NCBI GenBank assembly: GCA_938044045.1
Contig: CALIQN010000110.1
Coordinates: forward strand, 1-60,581
Length of the DNA: 60,581 nt
Direction of reading: 5' to 3'
Source: an uncultured Peptococcaceae bacterium
Lineage (GTDB): Bacteria; Bacillota; Peptococcia; Peptococcales; Peptococcaceae
Notes under the pieces: generated by a model
Databases searched by the model: none
Told to the model about the DNA's origin: nothing
The model's input: only the letters and a program-made list of their open reading frames with translations
Position numbers and translations under genes: made by a program
In this document: positions 4,630 through 52,831 of the stretch, in pieces
Position numbering within the stretch: the first letter of the stretch is position 1
How the letters are laid out: each line of letters begins with the position of its first letter

Positions 4630-5184
4630 ATGTTAGATGAACGTATTGCTAGGCGCTATGCTAAAGCTTTGTTTGACTTGGCACTAGAAGTCGATCGTCC
4701 CAGGGAAATAGGCATGGAATTTCTTAGTGTGACTGAAACCTTGGATGAAAACGCCTCTTTAGGGAAGCTTTTTGTAGAGGGCGTTTATGTCACAAGGGAA
4801 TTAGAGGCAGTTACCAGAGGAGTTTTTAAAGATAAAGATGCTTATCTTGTCAATTTTATCTGTCTTTTGATTGAAAAAAGACGGACAGCTTATATTTATC
4901 TTATCCAAGAAGTTTATCAAGACCTGCTTGATCAGTATGAAGGGATTGCAGATGCCGAAGTGGTATCTGCTTTTGCCCTTGATGAGGCGGATCTAGAAAA
5001 GATTAAAAGGCATCTAGAGGAGAAATTTCAAATCAAAATCAGACTAAATGCCAAGGTGGATCCAAGCTTGATCGCAGGCATTCGAGTTCAATATAAGGAT
5101 TATGTCTCAGACTCATCTTACAAGACAAGGCTTTTAGAGATGAGCAAAAAAATACTTGCAAATGAACAGGAGGTGAACCTATGA
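4630..5184 (+). CDS. atpH: F1 ATP synthase subunit delta
   Basis: 184 aa. [14 protein letters not shown]-type N-terminus. Operon position fits. Confidence 0.9.
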
Positions 5185-6695
5185 GCATTAGACCAGATGA
5201 GATTAGTGCGATTTTAAAAACACAGATCAAAAACTTCGATACCAAGTTAGAGGCCAGTGAAGTCGGCATGGTAATTGAAGTAGGTGATGGGATTGCTCGT
5301 GTTCACGGACTTCAAAATACCATGGTAAACGAACTATTGGAGTTTCCTGGTGGGGTTAAGGGTATGGCACAAAACCTTGAGGAAGACAATATTGGTTGTA
5401 TCATCCTTGGGGAGTATATTCATATCAAAGAAGGTGACCTTGTCAAACGTACAGGGCGTATTGTTGAGGTACCTGTTGGCGATGCCTTAATTGGGCGTGT
5501 CGTCAATGCTATCGGTGAACCTATTGATGGCAAGGGGCCGATTGTTACTGACAAGAGCCGTCCAGTGGAAAATGTTGCTTCTGGGGTTATCACACGTAAG
5601 GAAGTTAAAGAGCCACTTCAAACAGGGCTAAAGGCGATTGATGCTTTAGTGCCGATTGGTAGAGGACAAAGAGAGCTTATCATTGGCGATAGACAAACAG
5701 GTAAGACAGCCATTGCCATTGATACTATCATCAATCAAAAAGGAAAAGACGTCATTTGTATCTATGTTGCCATTGGACAAAAGGCATCAACCGTTGCCAA
5801 TGTTGTTACCAAGTTAGAAAACTTTGGGGCGATGGAGTATACCATTGTTGTTTCTGCCAGTGCTTCTGAAGCCTCTCCTATGCTCTACCTTGCACCTTAT
5901 GCGGGGGCAGCGATAGGGGAAGAGTTTATGTTTAACGGTAGAGATGTCCTAATTGTTTATGATGACTTATCCAAACAAGCTGTCGCTTACCGTGAAATCT
6001 CTCTTTTACTTCGTCGTCCACCAGGACGTGAAGCTTATCCAGGGGATGTCTTTTATCTCCACTCACGCTTATTAGAAAGAGCTGCAAAATTAGATGATAA
6101 TTATGGTGGTGGCTCAATGACAGCCCTACCAATTATTGAGACTCAAGCATCTGACGTCTCTGCTTATATTCCAACCAATGTTATCTCTATCACCGATGGT
6201 CAGATTTTCTTGGAAAGTCATCTCTTCTACTCAGGCATTCGACCTGCAATCAATGCAGGGATTTCCGTTTCCCGTGTTGGGGGCTCTGCTCAAGTTAAGG
6301 CGATGAAAAAGGTCGCTGGGAACTTGCGTATTGACCTTGCCCAATACAATGAACTCAAGGCCTTTGCCCAATTTGGTTCTGACCTTGATGAAGGGACAAA
6401 GGCAACTTTGGCAAGAGGGGAAAGGGTAACTGAAATCTTAAAACAAGATCAGTACCAACCAATGCCAGTAGAAAATCAGATTGCCGTCATTTATGCAGTT
6501 TCTAAGGGCTATACTGATGATATTGAAGTGAGCAAGATAAGAGCATTTGAAAAAGAATTCTTATCTTACCTCGCTTCTAGTGAATATAAGGCGAGTGTTT
6601 TAGAACCACTACAAACAGAAGGTGTCTTGACCGATGAAGTGGAAAACGCCTTAAAAACAGCGATAGAGAGCTTTAAGGTAAGTTTTTTAGCCTAG
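5181..6695 (+). CDS. atpA: F1 ATP synthase subunit alpha
   Basis: Walker A GDRQTGKT. Full-length alpha subunit. Confidence 0.98.
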
Positions 6696-33500: not shown

Positions 33501-33600
33501 TCATTTATCAAGAGTGGTGGAGGGACTGGCCCAGTGAAGCCCGGCAACAGCCTATTATGGAAATGTGCCAAATCCAGCAGACAATGTCTGAGAGATAAGT
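33501..33600 (+). promoter_or_regulatory. SAM-I (S-box) riboswitch aptamer
   Basis: TTATCAAGAGTGGTGGAGGGACTGGCCCAGTGAAGCCCGGCAAC ... GTGCCAAATCCAGCAG ... GAGAGATAAG matches the S-box core. Confidence 0.93.
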
Positions 33601-33618
33601 GTAAAAATAGCATTTTTT

Positions 33619-41210: not shown

Positions 41211-41559
41211 TAGGCTAGTTGTCGTCTTTGGGACTGTCTAGCCATTTGATGGTGTAATAACAAATTGCGCCACCTATGACAATCCCAATGATGGACAGAA
41301 TGTATTTAAACATAGTATCAATTCCCTACCGTCGTAGGAATAGTTGACGATAAAAACACTGTAGCATATTACTGCTAAGATGGTGGCTTTTATTTTAAGC
41401 CTAGATAGAGGAAAATGTTGGGCAGAAAATTCTGCTGGGGTCTTATTTGGTGAGGAAGTGGTGGAAAAAGACTTATCCTAGGCACCCAGGGGCGTGTTTG
41501 TTTTGTCTTTTGGCTCGGATTTTGCTATGATTAAAAAAATCACTAAAGGAGACACTAAC

Positions 41560-42618
41560 ATGGCACTGACCTATACCGTAGAACAGGTGGCAGACTTGCC
41601 CCAAGCAATTGACCTCGATAGCCTAGTCGCTTTTTTGAAAGATAGCCAAAGTTATGAATGGGCGATGTTTGCCTCTAAGACAGAAGACCCACAAGACACA
41701 CTAAAAGAGGCTTTACTAGAGACTAATTCCAAGCAGTGGTTGACACGTCCCTTATCAATTTTAGGGATAGACTTTACCCTCGCCTATCTGGATGACACTG
41801 TGGACAGCAGTCGTCCGATGATGACCAACTACCACAAAAATAGAATGCAGCTTTACCAAAAAGGGGAGGCACAAGTCTTTTACCTCAATGGATTGCCATT
41901 TTGGACACTGGGCGAGGCAAATCCTTTGGCGCTACTTCAGTTTGCACAAGATGAGGCGGGCAACGTTTTTTGTGTCAATGGAAAGCGACCTTTTCTTTTT
42001 GCCTCTGCGGAAGATTGGCAAAAGGCGACTGTCGAGACCTTTTTTACCCTTTGCTTGGACTATATCTTTTTTACGGATAGCTTGCGTCTACCGTCCTATA
42101 GCGCTTTCCTCGCCCTAGAGGCCTTGAGAGGACTGGCGATGGTGAGTTTAAATAAGCGCTACCGCTACCAAGTGGGGAGGCATGATGAACTAAGGGACAA
42201 TCTACACTACCTTGCCCAACTTTTAACCGGTCAAAAGCAAGCAAGGGGGATTTTGGATACGGTGGTGCTTATCACGGAAGATGGGGAGGATTTTCTCTTT
42301 TGGGAAGAGAGTTTTCAACAATTTGAGACCAAGGAAAGACGCCTCATGCACATCACAAGTGAAAGAGACCTTGCGGTGGCTTTAAGTCGTGATATGGAGA
42401 TTATTGTGCTACCACAAGCCCATTTGGAGACCTTTTTCTATATGCTACCAAGTTGGCGCAACAAAAAAATAGCCTATCTTTTAGATGAGGTGAGCCTAGG
42501 CAAAGAGGGTGCAGAAACGTTGTGGCAACGTCTGGAACATCGCATTGAAAAAGAGAGAAGTCTTGTTCTCTACCCTGAACAAGTGGACAAAGACCTTAGC
42601 CTTGCTTTTGAAGGCTGA
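41560..42618 (+). CDS. 352-aa cytoplasmic protein, function unknown
   Basis: Start at ATG 41560 after AAAGGAG. It has its own terminator. I recognise no motif with confidence. Confidence 0.7.
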   Translation: MALTYTVEQVADLPQAIDLDSLVAFLKDSQSYEWAMFASKTEDPQDTLKEALLETNSKQWLTRPLSILGIDFTLAYLDDTVDSSRPMMTNYHKNRMQLYQKGEAQVFYLNGLPFWTLGEANPLALLQFAQDEAGNVFCVNGKRPFLFASAEDWQKATVETFFTLCLDYIFFTDSLRLPSYSAFLALEALRGLAMVSLNKRYRYQVGRHDELRDNLHYLAQLLTGQKQARGILDTVVLITEDGEDFLFWEESFQQFETKERRLMHITSERDLAVALSRDMEIIVLPQAHLETFFYMLPSWRNKKIAYLLDEVSLGKEGAETLWQRLEHRIEKERSLVLYPEQVDKDLSLAFEG

Positions 42619-42625
42619 CGATAAA

Positions 42626-42663
42626 GGAGCTAACGCAGGTATCTTGGTGCGTTAGCTTTTTTG
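42626..42663 (+). terminator. intrinsic terminator
   Basis: AGCTAACGCA / TGCGTTAGCT stem followed by T6. Confidence 0.85.
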
Positions 42664-42702
42664 CTAGTGCTAGTCTAAAAAATAAAAAAAATTAAAAAAA
42701 GT

Positions 42703-42728
42703 GTGACTTTTTGTGCCACAAATTCGTC
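42703..42728 (+). promoter_or_regulatory. candidate ECF-type promoter
   Basis: GTGAC, 17-nt spacer, CGTC. Lies about 80 nt upstream of ATG 42807. Confidence 0.4.
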
Positions 42729-42806
42729 TTAGTAGGTGAAGGATAATTCAGTAAAGCTAAAAACCAACCTATCAATAGAAATGTTAAGATGAAAGGATGA
42801 ATTTTT

Positions 42807-43577
42807 ATGATGAAAAAAAGAATGGTCGCTATGATTTTAAGTGTTTCCATAACAGGCAGTTTTTTAGTGAGTGAAAGAGGGGAAGCCAATTCTAATTTAC
42901 CTGAAGTTAAAGACTTGAATTATACCATGATAGAATACAATCAAAGCGTGTTGACCCCTATGGAGCTCATGCGCCAAATCTTTCAGCCAAAGAGGAGTCA
43001 CGATATTGCTTCAGGTGCTTGGGCAACGAATGAAGGTAGCACTCTACCAAAGGATAACCCAGAGGCAATGCAGGCATTTAACAATGCGATGAGGGATTTT
43101 CTAGGCGGTCATTATGAAGTTATGGCGATCCTTGGATCACAAGTGGTGGCAGGCACAAATTATGCCTATCTCTGTAAGGGAAAAGCAGTCATCCCTAAAG
43201 CAAAATCAGCATATGTTATTGTATATGTCTATGAAAATCTTGAAGGTAAAGCAACTGTGACGGGGATAAAAGACTTACTTCAAGCTGCTCAAGAAGGGAT
43301 GACAGGTGGTTGGCAGTATCATCAAGGTAAGCCAGCTTTAAAGGATAATCCTAAGTTGAGCGCCGATTTTAAAAAGGCGATGGCTGACTTTGAGGGCACT
43401 TACTATAGTCCCATGGCCTATCTTGGCAGCCAAGTGACCACTGGCACAAATTATGCACTATTTTGCAGTGCCAGGGAAACAACTTTAGGCGCCAAGAGAA
43501 AGTTTTCAATCGTTACAATCAATAGTGACCTTAATGGCAAGGCAACACTTGTTGATATTGCTGATGTGTCTATCTAG
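42807..43577 (+). CDS. secreted protein with two stefin/cystatin-like repeats
   Basis: Signal peptide. Repeat 1 has SGAW then SQVVAGTNY. Repeat 2 has GGW then SQVTTGTNY. Repeat period is about 97 aa. Confidence 0.75.
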   Translation: MMKKRMVAMILSVSITGSFLVSERGEANSNLPEVKDLNYTMIEYNQSVLTPMELMRQIFQPKRSHDIASGAWATNEGSTLPKDNPEAMQAFNNAMRDFLGGHYEVMAILGSQVVAGTNYAYLCKGKAVIPKAKSAYVIVYVYENLEGKATVTGIKDLLQAAQEGMTGGWQYHQGKPALKDNPKLSADFKKAMADFEGTYYSPMAYLGSQVTTGTNYALFCSARETTLGAKRKFSIVTINSDLNGKATLVDIADVSI

Positions 43578-43608
43578 TTGAAGGCATAAGTGAGAGAAAG
43601 AGGATAGT

Positions 43609-44160
43609 ATGCAAGATGAGACAATTATCAGTCTCTACTTTAAAAGAGCAGAGGAAGCAATCACTGCCACAAAGGATAAATATGGTCGGCTGTTGGTTTC
43701 TATTGCCTATGGGATACTAAAAAATACAGCAGATGCCGAAGAATGTGAAAATGATACCTATCTAAAAACATGGGCAAGTATTCCGCCGAAAAAACCAGCA
43801 TTTTTAAGGGCATTTTTAGCTAAAATCACAAGAAATCTAGCCTTGGATGCTTATGAGGCAAAGCAGGCACAAAAACGTGGTGGTGGCGAAATACCAGCTG
43901 TTTTAGAGGAATTGGCTGAAATACTTCCAGATAAGGCGACTTTTTCAGAAACTTCAGATTTAGCAGAGGGGTTAAATGCATTTTTAGCAGACCTAAAGCC
44001 TGAGGCAAGTTATCTCTTTATGAGACGCTACTGGTTTGGCGACTCTCTACAGGAGCTTGCAGAGCGTTCTGGTTATGGCCTTAGTAAGATAAAAATGAGC
44101 CTTTCACGTTCAAAAAAACAGCTAGGGGAAAAGCTAGAAAAGGAGGGCTACCTTAGATGA
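43609..44160 (+). CDS. ECF-type RNA polymerase sigma-70 factor
   Basis: 183 aa. Region 2 (DAEECENDTYLKTW) and region 4 (LQELAERSGYGLSKIKMSLSRSKKQL). Confidence 0.88.
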   Translation: MQDETIISLYFKRAEEAITATKDKYGRLLVSIAYGILKNTADAEECENDTYLKTWASIPPKKPAFLRAFLAKITRNLALDAYEAKQAQKRGGGEIPAVLEELAEILPDKATFSETSDLAEGLNAFLADLKPEASYLFMRRYWFGDSLQELAERSGYGLSKIKMSLSRSKKQLGEKLEKEGYLR

Positions 44161-44789
44161 AAACACAAGAAGTCAAAAAACTGTTGTATGCGATGAGCGA
44201 GATTGATGATGCTTATATTGAAGCAGCCTTAAGCTTTACACCTAGGGTGAAAAAGCCTAGCACTAAGCTGACTTTTCCAGCGATGAAGCGAGTGGTCTTA
44301 GCGATGGCAGCTTTTCTAGTGATGGGTGTCAGTCTGTATTATCTTTCAGATTTTACCGAGGATGCACCTCCTATGATTGGGGAGGTTACACCTTATCAAG
44401 AAGTTGGCTCACTTCAAGTAGCCTCTTCTCTGGCAGGCTTTGAAATGATAGTGCCAAAAAACCAAGCATCTGAGTATGAGGTAGCTTATCTTGTCTATCA
44501 TGGCGATGGTATAGCAATGATTGAGGTAAATTATAAGGCAGAAAATGGGACTGATAGAGGATATTATGTCCGAAAGGCTAAGGGTAATGAAGACATCAGT
44601 GGAGATTACAATACTTATGCTAGCACAGATATTGAAAAGCGAGATGGTCGAGTGATTACCCTAAAAGGCAATGATGGCAAGTGGTCTTTGGCAACATGGT
44701 CAGCCAATGGTTATTCCTATGCAATCGGCTTACAAAATCAGTCAATGGATAAGGAGACAATCCTAGCCCTCACCAAGGAAATCAGCTAG
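44157..44789 (+). CDS. single-pass anti-sigma-like protein with a DUF4367-like ectodomain
   Basis: 4-nt overlap with the sigma gene. TM at about residues 45-65. C-terminus WSANGYSYAIGLQNQSMDKETILALTKEI. Confidence 0.65.
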   Translation: MKTQEVKKLLYAMSEIDDAYIEAALSFTPRVKKPSTKLTFPAMKRVVLAMAAFLVMGVSLYYLSDFTEDAPPMIGEVTPYQEVGSLQVASSLAGFEMIVPKNQASEYEVAYLVYHGDGIAMIEVNYKAENGTDRGYYVRKAKGNEDISGDYNTYASTDIEKRDGRVITLKGNDGKWSLATWSANGYSYAIGLQNQSMDKETILALTKEIS

Positions 44790-52469: not shown

Positions 52470-52543
52470 TGGCGATACAGGGACTTGAACCCCGGACACT
52501 ACGGGTATGAACCGTATGCTCTAGCCAGCTGAGCTATATCGCC
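52470..52543 (-). tRNA. tRNA-Met (CAT), elongator type
   Basis: Cloverleaf GGCGATATAGCTCAGCTGGCTAGAGC...ACGGTTCATACCCGT...GGTTCAAGTCC. Closely resembles Bacillus elongator tRNA-Met. Confidence 0.9.
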
Positions 52544-52546
52544 ATA

Positions 52547-52619
52547 AGCTGATAACCGGGATTGAACCGGTGACCTCCACCTTACCAAGGTGGCACTCTA
52601 CCGACTGAGCTATATCAGC
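52547..52619 (-). tRNA. tRNA-Thr (GGT)
   Basis: GCTGATATAGCTCAGTCGGTAGAGT, anticodon arm CCACCTTGGTAAGGTGG, T-arm GGTTCAATCC. Confidence 0.9.
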
Positions 52620-52629
52620 AAACAAAAAA

Positions 52630-52702
52630 TTGCGGGGACAGGACTTGAACCTGCGGCCTTCGGGTTATGAGCCCGACGAGCTACCAACTGCTCCACCCCG
52701 CG
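52630..52702 (-). tRNA. initiator tRNA-fMet (CAT)
   Basis: CGCGGGGTGGAGCAG 5' end with a C1-A72 mismatch. Three G-C pairs in anticodon stem TCGGGCTCATAACCCGA. Confidence 0.92.
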
Positions 52703-52714
52703 ACAATAAAAAAG

Positions 52715-52796
52715 ATGGAGGGAGAAGGATTCGAACCTTCGAAGGCAGAGCCAACAGATTTACAGTCTGTCCCCTTTGGCCACTCGGGAACCCCTC
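52715..52796 (-). tRNA. tRNA-Tyr (GTA), long variable arm
   Basis: GGAGGGGTTCCCGAGTGGCCAAAGGGG, anticodon loop CTGTAAA, T-arm GGTTCGAATCC. Confidence 0.9.
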
Positions 52797-52831
52797 CATC
52801 AAGGTATTCACTAGGAATACCAGCGAAATAA

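Follow-up and report, generated by a model that had tools for sequence, protein, structure and literature searches.

We describe a three-gene module in a 60,581-nucleotide stretch of DNA from an uncultured Peptococcaceae bacterium (GenBank assembly GCA_938044045.1, contig CALIQN010000110.1; the whole stretch is referred to below as the window), in which a gene for a secreted protein made of two stefin/cystatin-like repeats is followed by genes for an extracytoplasmic function (ECF) sigma factor and a single-pass anti-sigma-like protein. Our preferred reading, to which we assign a probability of roughly 0.6, is that this is an autoregulated ECF module whose sigma factor drives the synthesis of a secreted, two-headed, stefin-type inhibitor of papain-family peptidases. 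The parts (cystatin fold, ECF sigma factor, DUF4367 anti-sigma factor) are known; the novelty lies in the conservation of their coupling, in the promoter and in how large the family is. The genes and repeats lie as follows, with the evidence for each in brackets:

42792 to 42797, forward strand: ribosome-binding site AAAGGA, 9 nucleotides 5' of the ATG (sequence reading)
42807 to 43577, forward strand: secreted tandem stefin/cystatin-like protein, 256 residues (open reading frame (ORF), homology search, alignment, AlphaFold2, Foldseek)
43002 to 43286, forward strand: cystatin-like repeat 1, residues 66-160, with G70-A-W, Q112-VVAG-TNY and L145-E-G147 (AlphaFold2, hhalign)
43293 to 43574, forward strand: cystatin-like repeat 2, residues 163-256, with G167-G-W, Q209-VTTG-TNY and L-N-G (alignment, AlphaFold2)
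43609 to 44160, forward strand: ECF-type sigma factor, 183 residues, regions 2 and 4 only (Pfam, NCBIfam, PDB relatives)
44157 to 44789, forward strand: single-pass anti-sigma-like protein, 210 residues (ORF, AlphaFold2, homologues)

An initial annotation, made from the sequence alone, had described the first gene as encoding a signal-peptide protein of two repeats, and on re-reading the sequence we recovered the same coordinates and all of its motif residues: SGAW at residues 69-72 and SQVVAGTNY at 111-119 in the first repeat, GGW at 167-169 and SQVTTGTNY at 208-216 in the second. The repeats, of about 95 residues each, are 40% identical, and the protein has no paired cysteines. Its signal peptide (approximately residues 1-29, MMKKRMVAMILSVSITGSFLVSERGEA followed by NS) reads as Sec type and lacks a lipobox cysteine, unlike most homologues, for which the consensus of a 64-sequence alignment carries an LxxC lipobox. 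Residues 30-65 form a low-confidence linker in the AlphaFold2 model.

The cystatin fold consists of a five-stranded antiparallel sheet around one helix. An AlphaFold2 model built on the 64-sequence alignment reached a predicted local distance difference test (pLDDT) score of 95-98 in both repeats, and the order of elements in each modelled repeat, b1-a-b2-b3-b4-b5, corresponds to the cystatin order b1-a-b2-L1-b3-b4-L2-b5. Comparing the model with the PDB by Foldseek, we obtained a two-domain phytocystatin as the best match (E 1.5e-5), with further matches to potato multicystatin, sialostatin L2 and cystatin C and to the two-domain relatives latexin and fetuin-B, the cystatins scoring at probability 1.0. 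At the sequence level, a single-repeat profile (A2, comprising 44 repeats) retrieved 21 PDB sequences at E ≤ 1, 20 of them cystatins or stefins (best E 4e-4). Taken individually, 17 of the 64 family members match Pfam Cystatin at E ≤ 0.01 and 8 match SQAPI. Aligned by hhalign with human stefin A, whose sequence was entered by hand, the A2 profile gave 94% probability and E 1.2e-7, the superposition placing GG of stefin A on the family's GGW, QVVAGTNY on QVVAGTNY, and L73-P-G75 on the family's L-x-G. The cystatin fold that the initial annotation had proposed is thus recovered in the modelled topology, with matches in both the structural and the profile searches.

Conservation within the family is concentrated in the same places. 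Six columns are invariant among the 64 homologues (G70, Q112, V114, G116, N118 and L122), three more are conserved in at least 90% of these sequences (G167, L145 and G147), and G5 never varies in the alignment of 44 single repeats. Among 120 homologues, most repeats contain QxVxG, and GGW likewise recurs in both repeats of most of these proteins. Since the invariant and near-invariant columns coincide with the N-terminal glycine, the QVVAGTNY hairpin and the second hairpin, the three segments of the cystatin wedge are the best-conserved positions of the family, and the earlier identification of the stefin A papain-binding loop, together with the superfamily's N-terminal Gly and QxVxG signature, holds well beyond the window protein. 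The family also has traits outside the classical stefin set, namely the Trp after GG, an L-x-G second hairpin with neither Pro nor Trp, and a conserved Cys in a YAxLC motif; a Trp after GG is found as well in tick cystatins matched by the A2 profile (8r28). The protein, then, is stefin-like in sequence; with its signal peptide and two domains it is no classical stefin.

We next turn to the genes around it. In a neighbourhood survey of 80 reference loci of family members, a sigma gene adjoins the cystatin-like gene in 19 loci and an anti-sigma gene in 17; they are the sole recurrent neighbours, and the sigma/anti-sigma pair is kept in 17 of the 19 sigma-linked loci. Homologues therefore repeatedly adjoin the same sigma/anti-sigma family, as the initial annotation had expected if its reading were right. 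The linked loci show two gene orders, with the cystatin-like gene either before the sigma and anti-sigma genes, as in the window, or after them. Linkage is also phylogenetically clustered: 9 of the 10 closest reference loci are sigma-linked, and the nearest neighbour is itself linked for 14 of 20 linked genes as against 5 of 61 unlinked ones. Metagenomic relatives at 54%, 49% and 39% identity retain the module amid unrelated flanking contexts, and one metagenomic relative carries a CorA gene between the cystatin-like and sigma genes. On each of the three points at which the initial annotation had left itself open to refutation (a match to the fold, conservation of the motifs and adjacency to sigma genes among homologues), the results came out in its favour.

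A promoter shared by these loci provides a further tie between the genes. ECF autoregulatory promoters typically combine a -35 element ending in AC with a CGT-type -10 element some 16-17 nucleotides away, and upstream of the cystatin-like gene the window holds the following features:

42623 to 42662, forward strand: intrinsic terminator of the upstream gene, forming the 5' boundary of the module (15-bp stem and U-run; free energy -20.1 kcal/mol, z = -3.4 against shuffled sequences)
42702 to 42731, forward strand: putative ECF-type promoter, with -35 TGTGAC (42702-42707), a 17-nucleotide spacer and -10 CGTCTTA (42725-42731) (footprinting)
42733 to 42742, forward strand: conserved block 3' of the -10, TAGGTGAAGG, probably the start-site or initial-transcript region (conservation)

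The GTGAC-N17-CGTC motif to which the initial annotation had drawn attention (GTGAC at 42703-42707, spacer at 42708-42724, CGTC at 42725-42728) ends 79 nucleotides before the ATG. The pattern TG(T/C)(G/C/A)AC-N17-(C/T)GT(A/C)T has a single match on both strands of the 60.6-kb window, at 42702 on the forward strand. Across loci, the full two-part element reads TG(T/C)(G/C/A)AC at -35 and (C/T)GT(A/C)T(A/T)TAGG..GAA.GG at -10, with a spacer of 17 nucleotides in 28 of 36 instances, and it lies on the coding strand just 5' of the operon in 15 of the 19 linked reference loci as well as in L085, L087 and L088. Where the cystatin-like gene comes last (L005, L006, L009, L011 and L023), a separate copy of the motif directly precedes it. 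Position, strand and spacing are thus conserved far above background, which supports, by phylogenetic footprinting, a real ECF-type promoter with a predicted transcription start. The -35 variants TGTGAC, TGTCAC and TGCAAC partition perfectly with K, N or T at one residue of the sigma region-4 helix (window position 160) in 21 sigma factors, a covariation that, at the sequence level, is consistent with direct recognition and is confounded by phylogeny.

Footprinting also yielded observations on the surroundings of this element. In distant loci the block 3' of the -10 reads TAGGGTGAAAGG or TAGGTCAGAACGG, and conservation runs about 15 nucleotides past the -10 (instances from L005 to L096: TAGGGTGAAAGGCA or TAGGTCAGAACGGCA), which could reflect a start-site preference or an element of the 5' untranslated region. 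A slightly relaxed pattern precedes 8 of the 61 cystatin-like genes that have no adjacent sigma gene (L010, L021, L032, L033, L040, L048, L065 and L073), against a background of about 0.014 per 400-nucleotide region, and this suggests that such genes are remote regulon members of a sigma factor encoded elsewhere in the genome. In a fold scan, the gap separating the cystatin-like gene from the sigma gene showed no terminator structure, and the anti-sigma gene had no clear terminator 3' of it.

ECF proteins are the group 4 sigma-70 factors, of about 180-200 residues with regions 2 and 4 only. The second gene, which starts 31 nucleotides 3' of the cystatin-like ORF, fits this description: its product matches Pfam Sigma70_r2 (E 1.1e-10) and Sigma70_ECF (26.5 bits against a cut-off of 21.1), with r4_2 weak, and it matches TIGR02937 at 52.4 bits against a cut-off of 42.9. 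Its nearest solved relatives in the PDB are the ECF factors SigE and SigR. Its earlier assignment as an ECF sigma gene is confirmed, and so is the 4-nucleotide overlap (ATGA) of the sigma ORF with that of the anti-sigma-like protein, which comprises two recognisable parts:

44283 to 44348, forward strand: transmembrane helix, residues 43-64 (AlphaFold2 model)
44394 to 44777, forward strand: DUF4367-type ectodomain, residues 80-207 (AlphaFold2, homologues, alignment A3)

The ectodomain is modelled confidently by AlphaFold2 as a beta-rich domain. Alignment A3 reveals an invariant motif in it, R139-K140..G143..D146-I-S-G-D150...Y154...W181, whose centre is a 13-residue loop that links two strands. 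The cytoplasmic part of about 42 residues is modelled as two short helices (residues 3-25), with the motif SEIDDAYIEAA and without a Cys/His motif. The label DUF4367-like, given to the ectodomain in the initial annotation, draws its support from the homologues and not from the window protein itself, whose domain would be a divergent one: the window anti-sigma has no Pfam hit at E ≤ 1, hence neither DUF4367 (PF14285) nor zf-HC2, and no NCBIfam match above cut-off, whereas its full-length homologues (E 1e-20 to 1e-24) score 25-33 bits against the DUF4367 cut-off of 22.1, and several database homologues carry PF14285, so that the label is supported by transitive homology. Neither Foldseek nor a sequence-profile search of the PDB gave a significant match to the ectodomain. 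The best Foldseek matches, PsbP and LolA, reached only E 0.06, and a LolA-like label was therefore dropped. The role of this protein as an anti-sigma factor is suggested by its architecture and its gene coupling. Distant relatives of the ectodomain (P0214, P0215 and P0217) pair DUF4367 with PF07833, a copper amine oxidase N-terminal-like domain.

The same DUF4367-type domain occurs in three settings: as the anti-sigma ectodomain, as a stand-alone lipoprotein of about 170 residues, or fused after cystatin repeats. At many loci a homologue of the anti-sigma ectodomain (E 1e-7 to 1e-18) forms the C-terminal domain of the cystatin-like protein, two cystatin repeats being fused to DUF4367 in P0190 and L096 and also in L005, L006, L009, L011, L013, L014, L019, L023, L024 and L070. 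Other modules built around this sigma family begin with a gene for a lipoprotein with DUF4367 only (P0205, L093-95) or for a lipoprotein with two cystatin repeats and DUF4367 (P0190). Given these three forms of the first gene (DUF4367 only, two cystatin repeats with DUF4367, two cystatin repeats only), the general module can be written as an exported first-gene product followed by sigma and anti-sigma.

Three further ideas about the make-up of the module were considered and set aside. Mimicry of the same-locus anti-sigma ectodomain by the fused DUF4367 domain was rejected, the two being old, separate lineages with 25-37% identity within a locus. Acquisition of a fused-type domain by the window anti-sigma found no support, as every cystatin-only module matches the anti-sigma-type profile with the higher score; for the window protein the margin is small (96 against 90 bits). 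The downstream flavodoxin gene was rejected as part of the module on the grounds that close relatives have a Fic gene in between and that flavodoxin is not recurrent among the 80 loci. In these relatives (L090-L092), whose cystatin-like protein is 83% identical, the Fic-domain gene lies between the anti-sigma and flavodoxin genes at approximately 5037-6290 on the reverse strand, and it is absent from the window. As no clear terminator follows the anti-sigma gene, transcripts in the window strain may read through into flavodoxin.

Taken together, we chart the following working model. A promoter of the type read by the module's own sigma factor, TGTGAC-N17-CGTCTTA, would drive all three genes. 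At rest, sigma would be retained at the membrane by the anti-sigma protein through a predicted direct interaction, and a signal, presumably perceived by the ectodomain, would release it. The freed sigma factor would then transcribe its own operon in positive autoregulation, yielding more of the stefin-like protein, which outside the cell would most likely inhibit cysteine peptidases of the papain family (C1) by tight, wedge-type binding, with the host, the diet, protozoa or other microbes as candidate sources of these enzymes. That the protein inhibits C1 proteases, and that the module takes part in any 'protease sensing', we infer.

Several observations weigh against this model. In the second repeat of the window protein the central Val of the hairpin is replaced by Thr, giving QVTTG in place of QxVxG; the window protein and its closest relatives have QVTTG or QVTNG here, and most other homologues the canonical QVVAG. 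The second hairpin reads L-E-G or L-N-G, compared with L-P-G in stefins or P-W in cystatins. In a Pfam scan the window protein reaches only 13.1 bits (E 0.12) with Cystatin PF00031, against a cut-off of 22.2, and similarly stays below threshold with SQAPI (15 bits, E 0.033, cut-off 31); it has no match in NCBIfam. About three quarters of the sampled homologues (61/80) have no adjacent sigma gene, and no peptidase or other gene recurs as a neighbour in the 80 loci. Class-I anti-sigma domains are N-terminal, span about 50-90 residues and often contain HxxxCxxC; neither such a domain nor zf-HC2 is recognisable in the window anti-sigma, by Pfam or in the AlphaFold2 model. A biochemical test of any bacterial stefin was not found in the literature searched. 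Finally, the first gene of sister modules may encode DUF4367 alone, a hint that what this gene encodes may have a part in signalling and not be an output pure and simple.

This last point leads to an alternative that we consider unlikely, in which the stefin-like protein serves chiefly to signal with the anti-sigma protein, much as RseB does for RseA or the lipoprotein CseA for Streptomyces sigma-E, binding or shielding its ectodomain or presenting a ligand to it, and so tuning sigma release, with protease inhibition secondary. It would explain why the first slot of sister modules is occupied by a lipoprotein paralogous to the anti-sigma ectodomain (P0205, L093-95) or by a fusion of that domain with two cystatin repeats (P0190, L096), and it agrees with most family members being lipoproteins at the membrane surface, where the ectodomain is located. 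The window protein, however, has neither a DUF4367 domain nor a lipobox, the strongest conservation falls on the protease-binding wedge and on no other surface, and most family members have no sigma or anti-sigma neighbour; moreover, the age and separateness of the fused and anti-sigma domain lineages (25-37% identity within a locus) leave no sign of co-evolving mimicry. A somewhat smaller chance attaches to the idea that the protein does not inhibit proteases and that its cystatin fold serves as a binding module for some other extracellular ligand, as in monellin, the cathelicidin pro-domains, or fetuins and latexin, which act on other enzyme classes. The Foldseek matches to latexin, a carboxypeptidase inhibitor, and fetuin-B, a metallopeptidase inhibitor, fit this idea, as do the sub-threshold Pfam scores, in which SQAPI, a family of aspartic-protease inhibitors, does as well as Cystatin, and the three departures from the classical stefin set (Trp after GG, L-x-G, the YAxLC cysteine). 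Yet the Gly and QxVxG signature has generally disappeared from those superfamily members that do not inhibit, whereas across the roughly 3,200 clusters of this family no part is better conserved, and GGW is also present in the bona fide tick cystatins (8r28).

Least probable by far is that the sigma and anti-sigma genes stand next to the cystatin-like gene fortuitously and that the upstream motif is a chance match. The 61 homologues without an adjacent sigma gene are what one might expect if this were so, but linkage recurs in two gene orders, in different contexts and with proteins only 30-45% identical, no other neighbour recurs, and the position, strand and spacing of the motif are far above background; the linkage survey and the promoter footprinting effectively refute it.

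Within our preferred reading of an inhibitor-producing ECF module lies a more specific possibility, which we regard as doubtful, that the module is a protease-sensing feedback circuit, in which a foreign papain-type protease cuts the DUF4367 ectodomain and the operon responds with the matching inhibitor. The ectodomain cut would then be the site-1 cleavage that releases sigma, with the invariant hydrophobic-Arg-Lys stretch and the DISGD loop as candidate sites, and the inhibitor would subsequently shut the signal off. In sister modules, the inhibitor would come as a fusion with another copy of the domain that is cut, or the domain alone would act as a decoy. It is the three first-gene architectures that suggest this idea of ectodomain proteolysis as signal and inhibitor or decoy as response; weighing on it, the domain copies within a locus are not close mimics, and domain transfer is unsupported. 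If true, no earlier bacterial ECF switch would have been known to sense a foreign protease class and answer with a cognate inhibitor.

Among known systems, the window protein resembles stefins A and B (type 1, MEROPS I25A), sharing a domain of about 95-100 residues without disulfides, the N-terminal Gly hinge, the QVVAGTNY hairpin, the same fold, and a second hairpin that aligns with the L-P-G of stefins. In contrast to these single-domain, cytosolic proteins, the window protein is bacterial and has a signal peptide for export, for which most relatives use a lipobox. It is built in tandem, its family having 2 to about 6 repeats, it has a Trp after GG, L-E/N-G at the second hairpin and QVTTG in repeat 2, and it scores below the PF00031 threshold. 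Several cystatin domains per chain are also found in multicystatins (potato multicystatin 4lzi, the two-domain phytocystatin 2mzv, kininogens, fetuins), which give the best structural matches across both repeats and have no link to a sigma factor; as these are eukaryotic, with only 14-16% identity to the model, the tandem in the window probably arose by independent duplication. Bacterial counterparts exist as well, some family members having 4 to about 6 cystatin-like repeats (L022, L032, L059, L068, L069, L080 and P0338, the last of 753 residues).

A regulatory analogy is SigV-RsiV of Bacillota, in which a single-pass anti-sigma factor senses lysozyme and an autoregulated ECF operon encodes the countermeasure. 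The proposed logic, with an anti-sigma protein sensing an extracellular threat and its operon supplying the answer, would be shared, whereas SigV-RsiV has a different sensor domain, of RsiV type, and different outputs, OatA and Dlt, from those of the window module. An extracytoplasmic accessory protein within a sigma/anti-sigma operon is likewise found in RseA-RseB (sigma-E) and, as the lipoprotein CseA, with Streptomyces sigma-E; the folds of RseB and CseA are unrelated to that of the window protein, for which a role as regulator would be hypothetical. Staphostatins of Staphylococcus inhibit staphopains, have a lipocalin-like fold, are cytoplasmic and are encoded beside their target protease. 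With the window protein they share an origin in small operons of Bacillota and a capacity for cysteine-protease inhibition that for the window protein is predicted, and they differ in that the window protein is encoded beside a sigma gene and no protease gene recurs near its family.

To our knowledge, cystatins in bacteria have passed for rare curiosities, gained by horizontal transfer, for which no function was shown, and the initial annotation, too, called cystatin-fold proteins uncommon in bacteria. For this family that view is outdated. A homology search with the cystatin-like protein returned 374 relatives, none of which has a precomputed Pfam domain; few are named, and those few are called 'hypothetical', apart from one fusion protein whose name refers to its DUF4367 domain. 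A profile search of 1.84 billion cluster representatives identified 3,192 clusters (50% identity) at E ≤ 1e-3 and 1,012 at E ≤ 1e-30, and at least 501 loci emerged when species-representative genomes were scanned, those with names lying nearly all in Bacillota and including Ruminococcus, Lachnospiraceae, Oscillospiraceae, Lachnoanaerobaculum and Lactobacillus kalixensis. ENA metagenome contigs whose record names suggest human cohort studies carry identical copies of the cystatin-like gene. The CysS protein encoded in the window shares about 65% identity with its nearest named sequences, from Peptococcaceae and Clostridia MAGs, in keeping with an uncultured lineage of Clostridia.

Our literature search found a single paper on bacterial stefins. 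Kordis and Turk (2009; PMC2784779) predicted stefin-like genes in silico in a few Clostridia (Clostridium, Oribacterium), described their distribution as 'very limited and patchy' and proposed a role in defence against host proteolysis. Its text mentions neither sigma factors nor operons, lipoproteins or tandem repeats in bacterial stefins. Some of the stefins predicted there probably belong to the same family as the window protein, which in comparison now spans 3,192 clusters and includes a conserved regulatory module. Nothing on a link between cystatins and ECF factors, or on DUF4367 anti-sigma factors, was found in the literature searched.

The picture that emerges is of a stefin-like, mostly lipoprotein, tandem-repeat family that is abundant in gut, rumen and oral Clostridia and passes unannotated by current domain models, with a sizeable subfamily that appears to be under a dedicated ECF sigma/anti-sigma pair with a recognisable promoter; the sigma-coupled module recurs in many gut and rumen bacteria. 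This offers a first candidate regulon and promoter for the uncharacterised group of sigma factors with DUF4367 anti-sigma factors, a predicted new source of two-headed protease inhibitors, and a testable hypothesis, by which commensal anaerobes would perceive cysteine proteases of host, dietary, protozoan or competitor origin and neutralise them.

Other features of the window and of related contigs are as follows. Directly 5' of the module, a conserved ORF of 352-374 residues without a Pfam match (41494-42618, forward strand), followed by the terminator at 42623-42662, is present in all close relatives (L001-L004, L090-L092). The 1.33-Mb contig of L089 (GCA_015473165.1, BNJT01001013.1) has the same neighbourhood with many genes fragmented, the cystatin-like, sigma and anti-sigma genes among them, and is probably a frameshift-rich assembly. 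Farther away in the window, an S-adenosylmethionine (SAM) riboswitch lies at 33502-33601 on the forward strand (Rfam RF00162, 89 bits), in a region where related contigs carry methionine ABC-transporter genes, and a cluster of four tRNA genes lies at 52470-52797 on the reverse strand.

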